A stretch of 64,000 nt of DNA from a virus (IMGVR_UViG_3300049044_000138); one strand, 5' to 3'. Positions 1 through 42,000 are shown, numbered from the stretch's first letter. Program-made: numbers and translations. Notes: generated from the letters alone by a model not told the origin.

Positions 1-3000
1 CCGCCGACTGATATTTTTCCTGATCGATCGACTCGCCCCGGGCGATCTGCCCCAGAAACGGATCAAGCACTGCCCGCGCATTGGCTTCCTGGTCGCGTAG
101 AGACAGCGGCGAGCCCGACCCGGCGTTCAGGGACTGAAGAAATTCCTTCAGCGCTTGGCTGGCGCTCCCGGCGTTTTCCTTCGCTTCGGCCAGCTCCAGA
201 TTGTAGAGCTTTTGCGCGTCGGCCATTTGCTCGGCGGTTGCGCCACCTTCACGCAGCGCTTCGACGATCTTCTTGAAGCGGTCGTTCACCTCATCGATCG
301 CGTAGCCCACGGGATCGAGACGCTTTTGCAGTTCCTTCGGCACGGACTCGACCAGCAGCGCCTTTTCCAGCGCCTTCTGCAGATCCTGCCCCGACTTTAA
401 GATATTGATCGACGCTTGGCTGATCCCGGTGATCACGCCGCCCTCGATCGACTTCTGGATGGCGAAGGCTACGGCATCTTCCGCGCCATTCTTGCCGAAG
501 TCATAGAGCCCTTCCGCGCTCTTGCCGCTAAAGTTCAGCTTGCCGGTATAGCCGGTCGTCGAGACGCGATATTTGTCCTTATAGGTGCCGATGGTGATGT
601 TCGGCACGCCCGTAATCTCGGCCCCCAGCTGATCGGCGATATCCTCGATCCCGTTGATGACATGACCGGCGGCACCCTTCGCGGCGGCCTTCTGCGCAGA
701 TCCGCGACCGCTGGTGACATTGGCCGTCAGTTCGCCATATTGGTTCATGCTGATCGCGGCGGTGCCGTATTTCGGCTTGCTCAGCAGGCCGCCGAGCAGA
801 GATCCCGCCATACCGCCGATGATGCCCGCGATCGGCCCGCCCAATCCGGCCAGCTTGGAGGATATCGCGCCCAGACCCTTGCCCACGGCATCGCCCAGCA
901 ACTCTTTGCCCACGGCACCGCCCAGGGCACCGCCCAGCGAACTTTGCTTGCCGCCGAACACGGTGCCCGCCAGCGAGGAGCCCGCGACCCCCAGCGACGC
1001 CCCCTGCAGGATATCGCCAAATTTCTTGCCGATCGCGTCGGGAATATCGATCCCGAACGATTTCAGCCGCGCGACAATGGACTGGCCTATGAAGTTATAG
1101 GCGTCCGTCGCGCCGATCAGCGCCTTCGTGTTGTCGTTCGCCGCGTCGGCCTGCTTCCGCGCCGTTACGACGATCTCCGCTTCGGCGCTGCTGGAGCCGG
1201 TGACGACGTCGGATTGCTCGGCCTTTAGATCGGCCAGGAAGCCGTCATCCTTGAACAGGGCGGCCATGCTGCCAGCCAGGTTCGTCGTGGCACCGCCAGC
1301 GGCGACAATCCGGCCGCTGCCGATATCACCGCGCACCTGCGCCACCACATCGGCGAAGGACTTCAGCTCATTCCCGGCAACGGTCGTCTGCGACGACAGG
1401 AACTGATTCGCCTGCTCGACGCCGGTTCGGCCAGTCACGAAATCCTCGATCTTCCGGTCGAGGCCGCCGAAGATGCCTTCGGAGATGATGCGAGCCTGCA
1501 GGGACTTGAAGCTGGCCAGCAGATTACTGCCAAATTCCTTCACCGTGCCACCGCTCAGCAGCCGTTCGGTCGCGCTCTGGACATCGCCGATCGCTTGCAC
1601 ATAAAGGCCCACCTGCCGCCGCTGATCCTCGATCGCGCGCGAGCGGGCTTCGTCGGCCTTGGCGATCTCCAGCACTTTCGCCAGCTGCTGCTCATTGAGC
1701 GGCCCCATCTGGCGCTCAAGCGCCAGCACCTGCTGCAGCGCGTCAGCTTCGGCATAACGGCCCTGGACGACCAACGCGTCGATCTGCTCGCGCTCGCGGG
1801 CGCGGTCGACCAGGTCGCGCAAAGGACGATCGAGCGATTCGCGCACAACGATCTTCGCCTGCTCGGCTGATTTAATGGTCTCTTCGAAGTTCGGCGGCCG
1901 ACGGCGGCTGAGATCGTCGATAATGTCGTCGAGATCCCGAACAGCCTTCTCGACCTGTTGGACCCGTGAGGCATCGCCACCAAAACGTGAAGCGATGTCC
2001 GCAATCCTGTCGGCAGAATCGCGGCCGAACTCATCACGCGCGGCGATCGCCCGGCTGTTGTCTTTCGGCTTGTTCGTCTTTGGACGCAGCAGCAGCGCGC
2101 GATCGGCGGCAGTGCCCGCGCCTTTCAGAAGCCGCTCCGTCCCCTCATACTCCTTCAGGTTGCGGAGTTCGGTGCCAAGCGCAGTCACAGAGGCGGCAGC
2201 GGACGCGAATGCCTCATCCGTCAGAGCGCCAGCCTTCCGGAGGCTATCCAACCGCTCAACGGCCGTGGCGGCGTCCAGTTCACCTGAAAGCACCTGCTGG
2301 GAAATCACGCCGCGCGCGCCGGCATCCTTGCGCGTGACGGAAAAGCCGCCGCCCATGCCCCCCGAAAATTCGGTGGTGGGCGACTGGAGGGCAAGGATTT
2401 CGCTTCGCGCAGTGTCAGCGCGGGTGCGGGCTTGGATAGCCGCAACCTTGGCCTGCGCAATTGCCAGGGCAATCAGCTCCTTCGATTGCTCGCGGATCTT
2501 GCCAGTCGTCAGATCCATGACAGAGCCCAGGATATTCTGAGCGCTGCCCAACTGGTCCGAAGCGAACTTCGTCTTGTCGAGGGCGTCGGAGGTATCCTCC
2601 AGCTTCTCGTAGAACATGCCCAGGACAATGCCGGCCGTGGTCAACGCCGCCACCCAGGGATTGGTCAGGAAACGGCCCACGGCACCTGCCTTGCCGCTCA
2701 TGTCGGATAGTGCGCCGCCGACTTGGCCTATCTGCTGGCCGAAGATGACGAACAGGCTACCACCGCTCGCCAGCGACGCGCCCACGTCCGAAAGCTGGAA
2801 TCCGAGGTTTCGCATCGCCAGCTGATTGTTGCGCGCGGAGTGATCGAGCCGGCTCTGCTGGTCCGTCAGCTGCTTCGTTCTGCTGCTGGTTTGGTTCAGT
2901 TCGCTCTGCAGACGATCGAGTGCGACAGCCTGGTTATTCAGGCTGCGCACATTCTCTTCTGCCTCGCGCGCAGCCGCCTCAGCTGCTGCCACATAGAGCC

Positions 3001-29592: not shown

Positions 29593-29801
29593 ACGCGTTC
29601 AGCGTCCTCGATCTCGCGCTGGCCATTGCCGAAGACATGGCGGCAGAGGATGCTGCGCGCGAGTTCGAATCACAGAGAGACTTCACCCATGAGCTGGGCA
29701 CCGGAAGGCACCCGCGTCGCAATCTACGCGCGCTTCAGCACGGACATGCAGAACGCCCTAAGCGCCGAGGATCAGATCAGGCTCTGTCGAGCCTACGCTG
29801 A
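29589..29801 (+). CDS. Small ORF overlapping the integrase start
   Basis: ATGA coupling to the upstream gene; 70 aa; 3' half overlaps int out of frame. Confidence 0.4.
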   Translation: MNAFSVLDLALAIAEDMAAEDAAREFESQRDFTHELGTGRHPRRNLRALQHGHAERPKRRGSDQALSSLR

Positions 29802-31335
29802 ACGGCAGGGCTGGCAGGTCGTCGACGCCTATTCTGACGCGGCCATTTCAGGACAGAACAAGCACCGCCCCGGGCTGAACGCGATGCTCGCCGCCGCCGA
29901 TCGGCGCGACTTCGATATCGTCCTTTCGGAATCGCTCGACCGTATCGCCCGCGATCTAGGCGACACGGCCGAGATCTACCGCCGCCTGGAGTTCGCCAGG
30001 GTCGCGCTGTTCACCTGCTCCGACAACCGCGTAACCGAACTTCACATCGGCTTCATCGGCACGATGAGCGCCCTCTACGTGAAGGAGCTGGGCAGCAAGA
30101 TCCGCCGAGGCGGGAAGGGGCAGGTCGGACGCGGCCGAGTGCCGGGCGGCCGCTGCTATGGCTATGACGTGACGCCGGTCGTGAACAGCGACGGATCGGT
30201 CGAGTTCGGGCACCGCGCCATCAATGAGGAAGAGGCCGCGGTCGTCCGCCGGATCTTCCGGGAATATGCCGAAGGCGTCCCGCCTCGCACCATCGCCCAC
30301 AAGTTGAACGCGGAAGGCGTCCCTTCGCCGCGCGGCACCGAATGGCGCGCAAGCACCATCAACGGGTCGGCAGCACGTGACTATGGCATCCTGCGCAACC
30401 CGATCTATGTCGGTCGCATCCGCTACGGCCGCGTCCGCATGGTGCGCGACCCCAATTCCCGCAAGCGGCTGTCGCGGGTCGACGTCCAGCCGGACATTGT
30501 CGAGGGCGAAGCGCCACACCTGCGCATCATCGACGATGCGCTCTGGTCGATCGTCCAGGAGCGGAAAGAAGATCTCGCCCATGTCCCGTTCCATCGGCAG
30601 CGCCGGGCGCGGCATGTGTTGAGCGGCCTGGTCCGGTGCGGATGCGGCGGCACTTATACGATAGTGTCGAAAGACCGTTGGGCCTGCTCCCGGCATAAGG
30701 AGGCGGGCACCTGCGACAATGGCCGCCGGATCTCCACCGGCCGCCTTGAACAGCGGGTTCTATCCGGCCTGCAGGACCGGCTCCTAGATCCGGAGATCAT
30801 CCGCGCAGTGGTGAAACGTTATCATGATGCGCGGACGCAAGCGCGAGCAAAACTCCAGTCTTCGCGCTACCGGGCAGAGGAACGGGTCGACCAGCTGAAG
30901 GGCGAGATCCGCAACCTGGTCAACGCGATCGCCGCCGGTGCCGACATGGATGAAGTGAAAGAAGCGCTGAAGGACCGCAAGGCAGCGCTCGCGTCGGCCG
31001 AAGCCGCCTTGGCCGAGCATGAAGCCGTCCCGGCCATCATCCTGCATCCACAGATCGTCGAAGCATACCGGCGCAAGATCCGCCAGCTGGGCGACGCGCT
31101 CACCAGTGGCGAGCAGGCACAGAAATATCTCCCGATGATCCGCGACCTGGTCGAGGCCGTGATTGTGCGGGATGACGAAAACGCGCCCGATCGCGCGTCC
31201 CTGGAGCTGGTCGGAAATCTGTCAGCAGTGCTTGCGATCGCGACAGGAAAGCCTGTGCCAATGAAGCGGACTGTAAAGGTGGTAGCGGAGGAACGTTACC
31301 GCCTCGACAGTCCGCTGAAGAAGTTCCGGGTTTAG
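29689..31335 (+). CDS. int: Large serine integrase
   Basis: AIYARFST catalytic Ser; SESLDRIAR; recombinase domain (GRCYGY, LRNPIYVG); zinc ribbon (CGCGG...C...C); coiled coil; likely start 29689. Confidence 0.95.
   Translation: MSWAPEGTRVAIYARFSTDMQNALSAEDQIRLCRAYAERQGWQVVDAYSDAAISGQNKHRPGLNAMLAAADRRDFDIVLSESLDRIARDLGDTAEIYRRLEFARVALFTCSDNRVTELHIGFIGTMSALYVKELGSKIRRGGKGQVGRGRVPGGRCYGYDVTPVVNSDGSVEFGHRAINEEEAAVVRRIFREYAEGVPPRTIAHKLNAEGVPSPRGTEWRASTINGSAARDYGILRNPIYVGRIRYGRVRMVRDPNSRKRLSRVDVQPDIVEGEAPHLRIIDDALWSIVQERKEDLAHVPFHRQRRARHVLSGLVRCGCGGTYTIVSKDRWACSRHKEAGTCDNGRRISTGRLEQRVLSGLQDRLLDPEIIRAVVKRYHDARTQARAKLQSSRYRAEERVDQLKGEIRNLVNAIAAGADMDEVKEALKDRKAALASAEAALAEHEAVPAIILHPQIVEAYRRKIRQLGDALTSGEQAQKYLPMIRDLVEAVIVRDDENAPDRASLELVGNLSAVLAIATGKPVPMKRTVKVVAEERYRLDSPLKKFRV
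31265..31316. other. Putative attP inside the integrase 3' end
   Basis: Imperfect 52-bp palindrome AGCGGACTGT-AA-AGGTGGTAGCG-GAGGAA-CGTTACCGCCT-CG-ACAGTCCGCT centred on GG 31290/31291; minus strand TCCTCCGCTACCA resembles a tRNA 3' end. Confidence 0.75.
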
Positions 31336-31640
31336 CGGCTTTTGCTCGGCGTTCCGGCGACTTCGGCATTGTGCCGGATGATCTCGGCACGGCTTTCGAC
31401 ATAAGCATTGACGACCGCAGCATGGCGCAGCCGGCATTCATCGTTCAGAGCGGCGTTAGGGTTCGTCACCCTCGCCAGCGTTGCCCAGCGCTGGTCCGGC
31501 AGCTGCTGGAGCGTGGGGCAAGGGGCACTCAATTCCGCCGTCAGCTCGGCGGGCACAGGTGCTGCTGGCGAGGGCGGCGTTAAGCGACCGCCACAGGCCG
31601 TCAGACATGCGAGCATCAGAACGGGCAAGAAACGGATCAT
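31332..31640 (-). CDS. o-spanin (Rz1-like lipoprotein)
   Basis: Lipobox LACLTAC; Pro-rich; overlaps the i-spanin gene. Confidence 0.8.
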   Translation of the reverse strand: MIRFLPVLMLACLTACGGRLTPPSPAAPVPAELTAELSAPCPTLQQLPDQRWATLARVTNPNAALNDECRLRHAAVVNAYVESRAEIIRHNAEVAGTPSKSR

Positions 31641-31920
31641 CGGCGATCTCCTTTTCGATGGCGGGCTGAATGACGGTCCCGTGATAGGTCCGGACGGCCG
31701 CGAGGCCTTCGGCCAGCGCCCGATCGTTTGTCGTGACGATCGTCGCCAACCTGCCTTCGCTACGGCGCAATAGGATGGCGAACGTCGCGGCTGATTCTGC
31801 GCGCTGCAGCTGCTCATCCTTCTGCGCGCGATCATAGCCGCGCTGGTCGATATACCAGACGGCACCGATGATAGCGGCGACCGCCAGAAGGTGCGGCCAG
31901 ATGCGGGATAAGATCGCCAT
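31456..31920 (-). CDS. i-spanin (Rz-like)
   Basis: N-terminal TM (LLAVAAIIGAVWYI) followed by a helical periplasmic domain. Confidence 0.75.
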   Translation of the reverse strand: MAILSRIWPHLLAVAAIIGAVWYIDQRGYDRAQKDEQLQRAESAATFAILLRRSEGRLATIVTTNDRALAEGLAAVRTYHGTVIQPAIEKEIADDPFLARSDARMSDGLWRSLNAALASSTCARRADGGIECPLPHAPAAAGPALGNAGEGDEP

Positions 31921-31975
31921 CACGCATCCTCCCATGTGCAGCCATAGAAGACGATGAGCCAGGGCAGGAGGAAGA

Positions 31976-32146
31976 TCATTGCTCCCCCACCTTTCCATCG
32001 GGGACCAGCGCACCCAGCGTGCCGCAGACCAGGCTGAGCCAACTGAAAGGGCTCGGCAGGACAGCCGCGCCCGAAATGGCCATACCGATGCCAACGAAGG
32101 TCGACCGCTCTTGCAGGCGCGATCGGAGCCAACGCAGGGCCCTCAT
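31976..32146 (-). CDS. Putative holin, 56 aa
   Basis: ATGA overlap with the endolysin stop; two short hydrophobic segments. Confidence 0.55.
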   Translation of the reverse strand: MRALRWLRSRLQERSTFVGIGMAISGAAVLPSPFSWLSLVCGTLGALVPDGKVGEQ

Positions 32147-32658
32147 GCCTCATTCCTCGACACAGGCACGCCAGCGGCCGTCAGCTTCACCGGGCCGCCG
32201 ATCACCGGGACGAGCGCAGGCCAGCGCCGTGCGACGCAGCGCGCCTTCTCCAGCCGCATGATGCTCACCCGATCGCCCTGATTGCCGCCCAGAACATGGT
32301 AGTGCGTCGGATCTTCGCCCACATAGAAGGCGACGTGCCCGCCACCCGCTCGATCGAACACAAGGATAGCGCCAGGCGCGAGCCGATCGGCCGCGATCGA
32401 TAGCCCCCATGTCGCCCAAGCCTTGGCCCGCACGCCGACCTTCATGGTCGACAGGTCGGCACCGGCGACGCGGAGGCAGTGCGCTACGAAAAGCCCGCAC
32501 CAGGGCACACTATCGGCATTGTAGGCGATGCCCAGGATCTTCAGGCCGAGAAGCTTTGCCCAGCCGAGGATTGTTGTATTGTTCGCAGCGCCGGCCGCTT
32601 CACGCGTGCCGATCAGTTGCCGCGCGGCCAGCAGCCACGCGGGTTCGGTCGAACCCAT
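32143..32658 (-). CDS. Putative endolysin, TIGR02594/NlpC-P60-like Cys-His peptidase
   Basis: PAWLLAAR...VPWCGLFVAHCL...GGHVAFY...VLGGNQ; lysis-cassette position. Confidence 0.8.
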   Translation of the reverse strand: MGSTEPAWLLAARQLIGTREAAGAANNTTILGWAKLLGLKILGIAYNADSVPWCGLFVAHCLRVAGADLSTMKVGVRAKAWATWGLSIAADRLAPGAILVFDRAGGGHVAFYVGEDPTHYHVLGGNQGDRVSIMRLEKARCVARRWPALVPVIGGPVKLTAAGVPVSRNEA

Positions 32659-39037: not shown

Positions 39038-42000
39038 CAGACGTAGTTCCGTGACAGGCCGATGAAGCCGCCTGCAGCGATGGCCTGCTGGATTTCCTGC
39101 AGCTTCTGCACGATCGCCGGAAAGCCTTGGGCCATCAGCTGCACACCATTTTCAGTGCTGGCAGCGGTCGCCTGCGCCGCCTTCGCCGTTGCCTCATTGA
39201 AGGGATCGGACGTGGTGCGGATCGGCGCGGCATTGTCGATCGTCGCGATCGCGTTGCCAGTCGCGCCCTGGATCATGTCGAACGCTTCGAAATATTTCGC
39301 GGTCGACCCGTAAAGCTGCCGCTCGATGTCCAAAAACGTCTGCGCCGCCGACTGATATTTTTCCTGATCGATCGACTCGCCCCGGGCGATCTGCCCCAGA
39401 AACGGATCAAGCACTGCCCGCGCATTGGCTTCCTGGTCGCGTAGAGACAGCGGCGAGCCCGACCCGGCGTTCAGGGACTGAAGAAATTCCTTCAGCGCTT
39501 GGCTGGCGCTCCCGGCGTTTTCCTTCGCTTCGGCCAGCTCCAGATTGTAGAGCTTTTGCGCGTCGGCCATTTGCTCGGCGGTTGCGCCACCTTCACGCAG
39601 CGCTTCGACGATCTTCTTGAAGCGGTCGTTCACCTCATCGATCGCGTAGCCCACGGGATCGAGACGCTTTTGCAGTTCCTTCGGCACGGACTCGACCAGC
39701 AGCGCCTTTTCCAGCGCCTTCTGCAGATCCTGCCCCGACTTTAAGATATTGATCGACGCTTGGCTGATCCCGGTGATCACGCCGCCCTCGATCGACTTCT
39801 GGATGGCGAAGGCTACGGCATCTTCCGCGCCATTCTTGCCGAAGTCATAGAGCCCTTCCGCGCTCTTGCCGCTAAAGTTCAGCTTGCCGGTATAGCCGGT
39901 CGTCGAGACGCGATATTTGTCCTTATAGGTGCCGATGGTGATGTTCGGCACGCCCGTAATCTCGGCCCCCAGCTGATCGGCGATATCCTCGATCCCGTTG
40001 ATGACATGACCGGCGGCACCCTTCGCGGCGGCCTTCTGCGCAGATCCGCGACCGCTGGTGACATTGGCCGTCAGTTCGCCATATTGGTTCATGCTGATCG
40101 CGGCGGTGCCGTATTTCGGCTTGCTCAGCAGGCCGCCGAGCAGAGATCCCGCCATACCGCCGATGATGCCCGCGATCGGCCCGCCCAATCCGGCCAGCTT
40201 GGAGGATATCGCGCCCAGACCCTTGCCCACGGCATCGCCCAGCAACTCTTTGCCCACGGCACCGCCCAGGGCACCGCCCAGCGAACTTTGCTTGCCGCCG
40301 AACACGGTGCCCGCCAGCGAGGAGCCCGCGACCCCCAGCGACGCCCCCTGCAGGATATCGCCAAATTTCTTGCCGATCGCGTCGGGAATATCGATCCCGA
40401 ACGATTTCAGCCGCGCGACAATGGACTGGCCTATGAAGTTATAGGCGTCCGTCGCGCCGATCAGCGCCTTCGTGTTGTCGTTCGCCGCGTCGGCCTGCTT
40501 CCGCGCCGTTACGACGATCTCCGCTTCGGCGCTGCTGGAGCCGGTGACGACGTCGGATTGCTCGGCCTTTAGATCGGCCAGGAAGCCGTCATCCTTGAAC
40601 AGGGCGGCCATGCTGCCAGCCAGGTTCGTCGTGGCACCGCCAGCGGCGACAATCCGGCCGCTGCCGATATCACCGCGCACCTGCGCCACCACATCGGCGA
40701 AGGACTTCAGCTCATTCCCGGCAACGGTCGTCTGCGACGACAGGAACTGATTCGCCTGCTCGACGCCGGTTCGGCCAGTCACGAAATCCTCGATCTTCCG
40801 GTCGAGGCCGCCGAAGATGCCTTCGGAGATGATGCGAGCCTGCAGGGACTTGAAGCTGGCCAGCAGATTACTGCCAAATTCCTTCACCGTGCCACCGCTC
40901 AGCAGCCGTTCGGTCGCGCTCTGGACATCGCCGATCGCTTGCACATAAAGGCCCACCTGCCGCCGCTGATCCTCGATCGCGCGCGAGCGGGCTTCGTCGG
41001 CCTTGGCGATCTCCAGCACTTTCGCCAGCTGCTGCTCATTGAGCGGCCCCATCTGGCGCTCAAGCGCCAGCACCTGCTGCAGCGCGTCAGCTTCGGCATA
41101 ACGGCCCTGGACGACCAACGCGTCGATCTGCTCGCGCTCGCGGGCGCGGTCGACCAGGTCGCGCAAAGGACGATCGAGCGATTCGCGCACAACGATCTTC
41201 GCCTGCTCGGCTGATTTAATGGTCTCTTCGAAGTTCGGCGGCCGACGGCGGCTGAGATCGTCGATAATGTCGTCGAGATCCCGAACAGCCTTCTCGACCT
41301 GTTGGACCCGTGAGGCATCGCCACCAAAACGTGAAGCGATGTCCGCAATCCTGTCGGCAGAATCGCGGCCGAACTCATCACGCGCGGCGATCGCCCGGCT
41401 GTTGTCTTTCGGCTTGTTCGTCTTTGGACGCAGCAGCAGCGCGCGATCGGCGGCAGTGCCCGCGCCTTTCAGAAGCCGCTCCGTCCCCTCATACTCCTTC
41501 AGGTTGCGGAGTTCGGTGCCAAGCGCAGTCACAGAGGCGGCAGCGGACGCGAATGCCTCATCCGTCAGAGCGCCAGCCTTCCGGAGGCTATCCAACCGCT
41601 CAACGGCCGTGGCGGCGTCCAGTTCACCTGAAAGCACCTGCTGGGAAATCACGCCGCGCGCGCCGGCATCCTTGCGCGTGACGGAAAAGCCGCCGCCCAT
41701 GCCCCCCGAAAATTCGGTGGTGGGCGACTGGAGGGCAAGGATTTCGCTTCGCGCAGTGTCAGCGCGGGTGCGGGCTTGGATAGCCGCAACCTTGGCCTGC
41801 GCAATTGCCAGGGCAATCAGCTCCTTCGATTGCTCGCGGATCTTGCCAGTCGTCAGATCCATGACAGAGCCCAGGATATTCTGAGCGCTGCCCAACTGGT
41901 CCGAAGCGAACTTCGTCTTGTCGAGGGCGTCGGAGGTATCCTCCAGCTTCTCGTAGAACATGCCCAGGACAATGCCGGCCGTGGTCAACGCCGCCACCCA

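Follow-up and report, generated by a model that had tools for sequence, protein, structure and literature searches.

What becomes of a phage integrase when the attachment site on which it acts lies within the last codons of its own gene? This question is raised by a 64,000-nt stretch of viral DNA, referred to here as the window, in which the 3′ end of a serine integrase gene (int) contains a symmetric site bearing the 3′ end of a tRNA. It is highly probable, judged from the comparisons below, that positions 31265–31316 are a functional attP inside the 3′ end of int, that the cognate attB lies at the 3′ terminus of a host tRNA gene, and that integration swaps one isoform of the integrase (Int) for another. 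What the swap might do for the phage is a separate matter, and is weighed separately.

The integrase gene and the site at its 3′ end

The window has a G+C content of ~64% and holds a 39,344-bp genome wrapped upon itself, with ORFs recurring at that period (e.g., 416–1228 at 39760–40572). The same integrase gene occurs on contigs of 39,441 and 39,471 bp, from several metagenomes, that are likewise ~39.4 kb in length. Given the repeat period and these contigs with the same integrase, the window represents a free temperate phage genome wrapped on itself, probably the product of a circular assembly. The phage encodes a DnaN protein and an S24-peptidase repressor, the latter as a separate ORF ~2 kb upstream of int. 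No tRNA genes were found within the window. Features of the int region are as follows.

29689–31335, plus strand: large serine integrase gene, phage isoform, 548 aa from its ATG, assigned by Pfam domains
31265–31316: predicted attP, a 52-bp imperfect inverted repeat within the last 24 int codons, based on symmetry and on the prophage junctions of a relative
31266–31274: outer box of the P arm, GCGGACTGT, with a mirror copy at 31307–31315; the arms co-vary in relatives
31280–31292, minus strand: 13-bp core, identical in attP, attB, attL and attR; the minus strand, TCCTCCGCTACCA, equals tRNA-Met nt 64–76
31282–31287: inner box of the P arm, GTAGCG, equal to tRNA nt 74–69, with its mirror, CGTTAC, at 31294–31299
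31290–31291: inferred crossover dinucleotide GG, non-palindromic, at the symmetry centre; it complements tRNA nt 66/65
31294–31335, plus strand: phage-only tail codons, RYRLDSPLKKFRV, and stop, predicted to be replaced in int upon integration
31332–31640, minus strand: o-spanin gene, 102 aa, lipobox LTAC, lipoprotein signal MIRFLPVLMLACLTAC, convergent with int
31456–31920, minus strand: i-spanin-like ORF, overlapping the o-spanin gene
31976–32146, minus strand: putative holin, a 56-aa ORF
32143–32658, minus strand: candidate endolysin with a CHAP domain

The integrase ORF is open from a TTG at 29626, and 569 residues are counted from there. Its product contains Resolvase (PF00239, E = 1e-25), Recombinase (PF07508) and Zn_ribbon_recom (PF13408) domains, and its nearest solved sequence is the catalytic domain of TP901-1 integrase. 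Across 26 integrase homologues, Y13, R15 and the catalytic S17 are invariant, as are C317, C319, C333 and C342 of the zinc ribbon. An AlphaFold2 model of the protein (mean pLDDT 79.6) includes a coiled-coil of long antiparallel helices (368–415 and 420–445). By its catalytic, Recombinase, zinc-ribbon and coiled-coil features, as read from sequence and model, the protein is a large serine recombinase. Enzymes of this kind integrate DNA through Int alone, and excision additionally needs a directionality factor.

A lysis cassette (31332–32658, minus strand) runs convergent to int. The member nearest int is identified as an o-spanin gene by its lipoprotein signal, and its stop codon overlaps that of int within the tetranucleotide TTAG, the int TAG occupying 31333–31335 and the o-spanin TAA being the complement of 31332–31334.

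The arms of the predicted attP (31265–31287 and 31294–31316) are 23 nt each, 83% complementary, and separated by a 6-nt spacer; pairing is 10/10 in the outer arms and 9/11 in the inner arms. With 19 of 23 positions complementary (k = 4..26, counted from the centre), this is the top site of such geometry in the 39,344-bp genome. All other centres score below 17, and the maximum among 20 shuffled genomes was 17. G31290 and G31291 flank the centre, which coincides with the junction of the two Glu codons in VVAE|E. An earlier note on this DNA had described a 52-bp symmetric site with these arm counts, centred on this GG between the Glu codons, and had read the minus strand of its left arm as the CCA-ending 3′ strand of a tRNA; it had also remarked on the overlap between the int and o-spanin stops. 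The per-position count reproduces the arms exactly, the sequence and its translation confirm the centre, the stop overlap is as described, and the minus strand does match the 3′ end of a tRNA-Met.

Ten further genes ending in the free-phage form were compared with that of the window. Each of the 11 free-form attPs has its best symmetry centre, within the final 110 nt of int, on a GG that precedes the end of the stop codon by exactly 45 nt, and two mirrored boxes are present, an inner box at k4–9 and an outer box at k17–24. Relatives aimed at elongator-type tRNA-Met all retain the inner box in both arms. The outer box occurs in several variants among relatives (GGACTGT, GGTTGATT and TGCACGG), with both arms changing jointly. 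This co-variation between arms shows that selection acts on the symmetry as such. A two-box layout of each half-site is established for the attP of large serine integrases, and the window site has the corresponding form: ~50 bp, two boxes per half-site, and an asymmetric 2-bp centre.

The GG lies inside the block over which attP and attB are identical. Since this identity extends over 13 bp (17 bp in the Paracoccus phage phiPam-6, discussed below), prophage junctions cannot place the crossover. It is assigned to GG 31290/91 because this is the centre of symmetry, and strand exchange likely occurs there.

Integrated relatives and the tRNA target

Bacterial genomes were scanned with the integrase, which led to a prophage in Sphingobium agri MAH-33. 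Its integrase is 97% identical to that of the window, and the alignment is confined to residues 1–556 of the 569-residue ORF, exactly the portion that precedes the predicted tail swap. In S. agri, the end of int reads ...aaagg-TGGTAGCGGAGGA-gggacttgaaccccc... and enters a tRNA-Met(CAT) gene that lies on the other strand, giving an Int C-terminus of VVAEE-GLEPPTRGL. The stop codon is a TGA complementary to U33-C34-A35 of the tRNA anticodon loop; the int ORF thus crosses the att core, and its stop lies outside the integrated element. The tRNA-Met(CAT) gene is intact in the lysogen.

The same contig carries the second junction, at a distance of 39,661 bp, which consists of host flank, the 13-bp core, and then ACGTTACC... 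It encodes E-RYRLESPLKKFRV-stop, the displaced tail, which differs from the window tail at several nucleotides and one amino acid. The displaced 13-nt tRNA fragment lies at this far junction. At the nucleotide level, window and prophage are alike in the int module only (91.9%), and the homology ends exactly at 31292. Since homology is limited in this way, the S. agri prophage, on present alignments, is a different phage with the same integration cassette. A second S. agri prophage (contig C14) has lysis genes 75–82% identical to those of the window, together with a serine integrase that is 39% identical, has no tRNA-type tail and adjoins no tRNA. With lysis genes so similar and integrases so unlike, the lysis and integration modules have been exchanged independently.

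An empty attB was found in another Sphingobium species, where it reads ...gaaata-TGGTAGCGGAGGA-gggacttgaa.... Its left host flank is 81% identical to the S. agri flank and directly adjoins an intact tRNA. The target tRNA is identical in the two Sphingobium genomes (77/77 nt), is single-copy in each, and has a G1-U72 pair and the anticodon CAU. An initiator tRNA was considered and is excluded by G1-U72 and by an anticodon stem that has no GGG/CCC run. Among tRNAs(CAU), the target is probably the host elongator tRNA-Met, with tRNA-Ile2 (lysidine) as the alternative.

For serine integrases in general, attB is distinct from attP and only the central dinucleotide need be common to both. Here, attB and attP differ outside the common 13-bp block, and the block itself is longer than recombination needs; it serves rebuilding of the tRNA. 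By inspection, the B′ half of attB has no clear match to the attP boxes, and a search of the attB half-sites for the expected 5-bp inward shift of the outer box (ZD box) gave no convincing match.

The proposed course of integration can be stated briefly. Because tRNA nt 64–76 are copied exactly in the phage P arm, the tRNA would be rebuilt after insertion. The int frame would continue antisense into the tRNA and terminate at the anticodon-loop TGA, so that the free-phage protein, ending ...VVAEE-RYRLDSPLKKFRV, would be succeeded by a prophage protein ending ...VVAEE-GLEPPTRGL, and the displaced phage tail codons would be left at the far prophage junction. By construction, the phage isoform would perform integration and the prophage isoform would perform excision.

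Much of this had been forecast. The earlier note had taken the site for an attP aimed at a tRNA-Met 3′ end, with the tRNA to be restored through the phage arm. It had also predicted that the last 13 residues would give way to antisense-tRNA codons (GLEPPT...), that phage and prophage would encode different Int isoforms, and that int would be directed into the tRNA; comparison of Int C-termini in integrated relatives was among its proposed checks. In S. agri the junctions map to the 13-bp core, the tRNA is whole, int and the tRNA are convergent, and the prophage protein has the forecast ending in place of the phage tail; the empty Sphingobium site agrees with the target.

The arrangement extends well beyond Sphingobium. 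A homologue of the integrase is present in 42 of 401 alphaproteobacterial species genomes sampled evenly across the class (E ≤ 1e-60). The 120 best database matches, which are 42–100% identical and mostly from sphingomonads, include 71 with an elongator-type antisense tRNA-Met tail (...VA[EK]E-G[LF]EPPT.GL), nine with an antisense initiator-tRNA tail (...VAG.GFEP.TFRL), and 19 with the 13-residue tail of the free phage. Most database entries of this integrase family represent the chimeric prophage isoform, in which the 8–9 terminal residues are tRNA-derived. For the initiator-type tail, the tRNA of one such relative (L044) is a typical tRNA-fMet, and a free-form attP of this subgroup carries TGGTTGCGGGGGC.

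Thirty loci were retrieved, and in 14 of them the 3′ end of int is overlapped by a tRNA encoded on the other strand. This is tRNA(CAT) in twelve cases and tRNA-Glu(CTC) or tRNA-Thr(CGT) in one case each, the last two belonging to homologues of ~43–44% identity (L043 and L047). From these overlaps with tRNA-Glu and tRNA-Thr, it is apparent that the clade switched tRNA targets and kept the frame in which the CCA end is read (...[VLM]-V-A...). In four loci (L041, L046, L049 and L052), an initiator-type tail is followed by ~45 nt of tRNA, from the CCA end to the anticodon loop, and then by divergent sequence. The remnant resembles the 3′ half of a tRNA that has been displaced, as would follow if a second element had subsequently entered at the anticodon loop of that tRNA and produced tandem islands. 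Many homologues (L038, L040, L042, L051 and others) lie ~80 nt from a contig end, or roughly one tRNA length, which suggests that assemblies often break at the tRNA/prophage junction.

A megablast search of the region against a phage collection gave no match, and a protein search of the collection returned four records only, all <41% identical. The isolated Rhizobium phage RR1-A (NC_021560, L014) has the same int-attP layout. Its annotated integrase ends ...VVAGE-RFEQSPQIILGRFVA, with TGGTAGCGGGAGAG inside the last codons; these 3′ codons are a candidate attP with a tRNA 3′ end, unannotated in NC_021560. The translated int 3′ end of Microcystis phage Mae-JY29 has no such tail.

Passenger or functional tail

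The phage-only tail is composed of two parts. Codons 1–8 mirror the P arm and are thus fixed by the DNA palindrome, while codons 9–13 lie outside it. In the 11 free-form sequences, mean pairwise nucleotide identity in codons 9–13 is 0.58/0.55/0.32 by codon position. By comparison, the mirror region to the left of the P arm, itself coding, scores 0.33/0.24/0.25, and the sequence past the stop 0.25. The tail ends in [KR]xFx[AVT], in which the Phe (TTC or TTT) is invariant among the 11 genes, K or R (AAG, AAA or CGN) stands two positions ahead of it, and A, V or T closes the tail. In 11/11 the stop is fixed 13 codons past the crossover. Codons 9–13 therefore look selected at the protein level, a signal that comes from five codons in 11 sequences. 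Taken together, the codon-phase pattern of identity, the fixed stop and the invariant Phe suggest that a short C-terminal peptide, disordered and basic-hydrophobic, is under selection.

Whether the swap of tails matters functionally is finely balanced, and we lean only slightly to the side of doubt. Our leading guess is that the tail is a degradation tag or a partner-docking peptide that would be removed by integration. Put more fully, and as a tentative proposal that we hold to be rather less likely, the 13 residues would be a functional peptide (a protease degron or docking motif ending [KR]-x-F-x-[A/V/T]) that is lost on integration, so that Int would be short-lived or tuned to integration while infection proceeds, and stable or competent for excision once in the lysogen. 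The tail end resembles ClpX recognition ends of the MuA/YbaQ type, which serves as a lead only. In view of the phage's DnaN, a sliding-clamp-binding motif was also sought in the tail and rejected, as the adjacent hydrophobic pair of QL[SD]LF is not present. If the proposal is true, tail removal would be a built-in sensor of integration state, with one isoform for each direction of the reaction.

The alternative that survives best is that the swap is a neutral by-product, int simply reading on until it meets a stop and the two isoforms being equivalent. This is quite possible, if somewhat short of probable. The phage-only tail is predicted to be disordered: helix 511–519 is the final ordered element of the AlphaFold2 model, the folded protein ends near residue 519, and pLDDT is <50 for residues 527–548. 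Furthermore, tail codons 1–8 are dictated by DNA symmetry, the prophage tail is set wholly by the tRNA, and the same trivial reading was weighed for the recombinase DsiB by McMurdie et al. (PMC3146451). A passenger sequence of this kind, however, would not account for a stop held constant at 13 codons past the crossover in every free-form gene, nor for the third-position-biased variation, invariant Phe and conserved K/R of the last five codons outside the palindrome, when the mirror region to the left of the P arm, which is coding as well, shows no conservation.

A less likely account, and one that we consider improbable, places the effect at the level of RNA. In the free phage, the attP hairpin would be carried on both the int and the convergent lysis mRNAs; integration would split it, and antisense transcription from the tRNA would damp int in lysogens. 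The 91-nt region folds at −44.7 kcal/mol (z = −6.2 relative to shuffles), int and the tRNA are convergent in the prophage, and there is no terminator-like site on the tRNA strand between the tRNA and int, all of which fit this account. Nonetheless, such a hairpin follows automatically from attP symmetry and is not accompanied by a U-tract terminator, there being no T-run at the palindrome, and the conservation of codon phase at the tail end is left unexplained. Finally, the notion that the palindrome is a mere bidirectional transcription stop between int and the spanin gene, bearing a CCA-ending 13-mer by chance, can draw on its stable fold and its position between convergent genes, but is rendered extremely improbable by the mapping of both prophage junctions and the empty site to the core, the elongator-type antisense tail in 71 of the 120 homologues, the co-variation of the arms in the two-box pattern of a serine-integrase attP, and the same want of a T-run.

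Comparison with known systems

The preferred reading, an attP within int that exchanges the Int C-terminus at a tRNA gene, is of interest for several reasons. A large alphaproteobacterial clade of serine integrases targets tRNA genes, namely those of elongator-type tRNA-Met, initiator tRNA-fMet, tRNA-Glu and tRNA-Thr, which runs against the usual view; the Islander paper, for instance, states that no serine integrase is known to use a tRNA gene as its target. The architecture would assign integration and excision to different isoforms of one enzyme, and offers a testable system for a link between the activity or stability of a serine integrase and its state of integration. Integrases with short sites at conserved, single-copy tRNA genes could also serve as integration tools for Alphaproteobacteria.

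The canonical enzymes of phiC31, Bxb1, A118/LI, TP901-1 and SPbeta share the same set of domains and a ~50-bp quasi-palindromic attP with inner and outer boxes and an asymmetric 2-bp centre. In those phages, attP lies outside int and attB within protein-coding genes. Here, in contrast, attP and attB share 13 bp, so that the tRNA is rebuilt. The mycobacteriophage BPs, a tyrosine-integrase phage, reportedly has its attP inside the repressor gene, a finding that is credited to Broussard et al. in 2013. The earlier note had drawn an analogy to BPs, which stands insofar as attP lies in a regulatory gene and integration alters the C-terminus of the protein. It fails in that the gene in BPs is the repressor, whereas here it is int and the repressor is a separate gene; Mx8 IntP/IntX and DsiB are closer parallels.

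Among phages of similar habit, the nearest by description is phiPam-6 (vB_PamS_Pami6), a mitomycin C-inducible phage of Paracoccus aminophilus with a serine recombinase (PMC3925955; PMC6536676). It is likewise a ~39-kb alphaproteobacterial siphovirus integrated at tRNA-Met(CAT), and its published 17-bp att repeat, CCCTCCTCCGCTACCAT, contains the window 13-mer (PMC3925955; PMC6536676). The excerpts available of these two sources make no mention of an attP within int or of a changed C-terminus. The filamentous Ralstonia phage phiRSM also pairs a serine recombinase with a tRNA gene, tRNA-Ser, as attB (Askora et al., in PMC7549136). It differs in being a filamentous phage with a small enzyme of the resolvase/invertase type, and no int-attP overlap is reported for it in the excerpt at hand (PMC7549136).

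Overlap of a recombinase gene with its attachment site has two closer precedents. In myxophage Mx8, with its IntP and IntX, the attP site is embedded in the coding region of int, and the gene that results from integration has a new 3′ end and encodes an integrase of altered properties (PMC6070905; PMC4383910, citing Tojo et al. 1996 and Magrini et al. 1999). The Mx8 enzyme is a tyrosine recombinase with other chemistry and att architecture, whereas only serine-recombinase domains were found here. The Islander paper cites the Mx8 and SSV integrases as extending across attP. The second precedent is the ssrA-specific integrase DsiB of Dehalococcoides, a ~540-aa serine recombinase. Without exception, the 3′ end of its gene overlaps attL and continues into ssrA (McMurdie et al. 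2011, PMC3146451), and DsiB resembles the present integrase both in this overlap and in its t(m)RNA-type target. Its authors suggested that DsiB is perhaps fully functional only on the circular element (PMC3146451). DsiB differs in that its target is the T-loop of a tmRNA gene, its element is a mobilisable island rather than a phage, and the enzyme is CcrB-like and paired with a second, small serine recombinase, DsiA (PMC3146451); the likeness drawn here is one of gene layout. No description of the int-attP overlap in the present alphaproteobacterial clade was found in the literature searched. A similar design has thus already been published for DsiB and Mx8, and the tailed-phage tRNA-Met clade of the Alphaproteobacteria is a new and well-documented member of this group.
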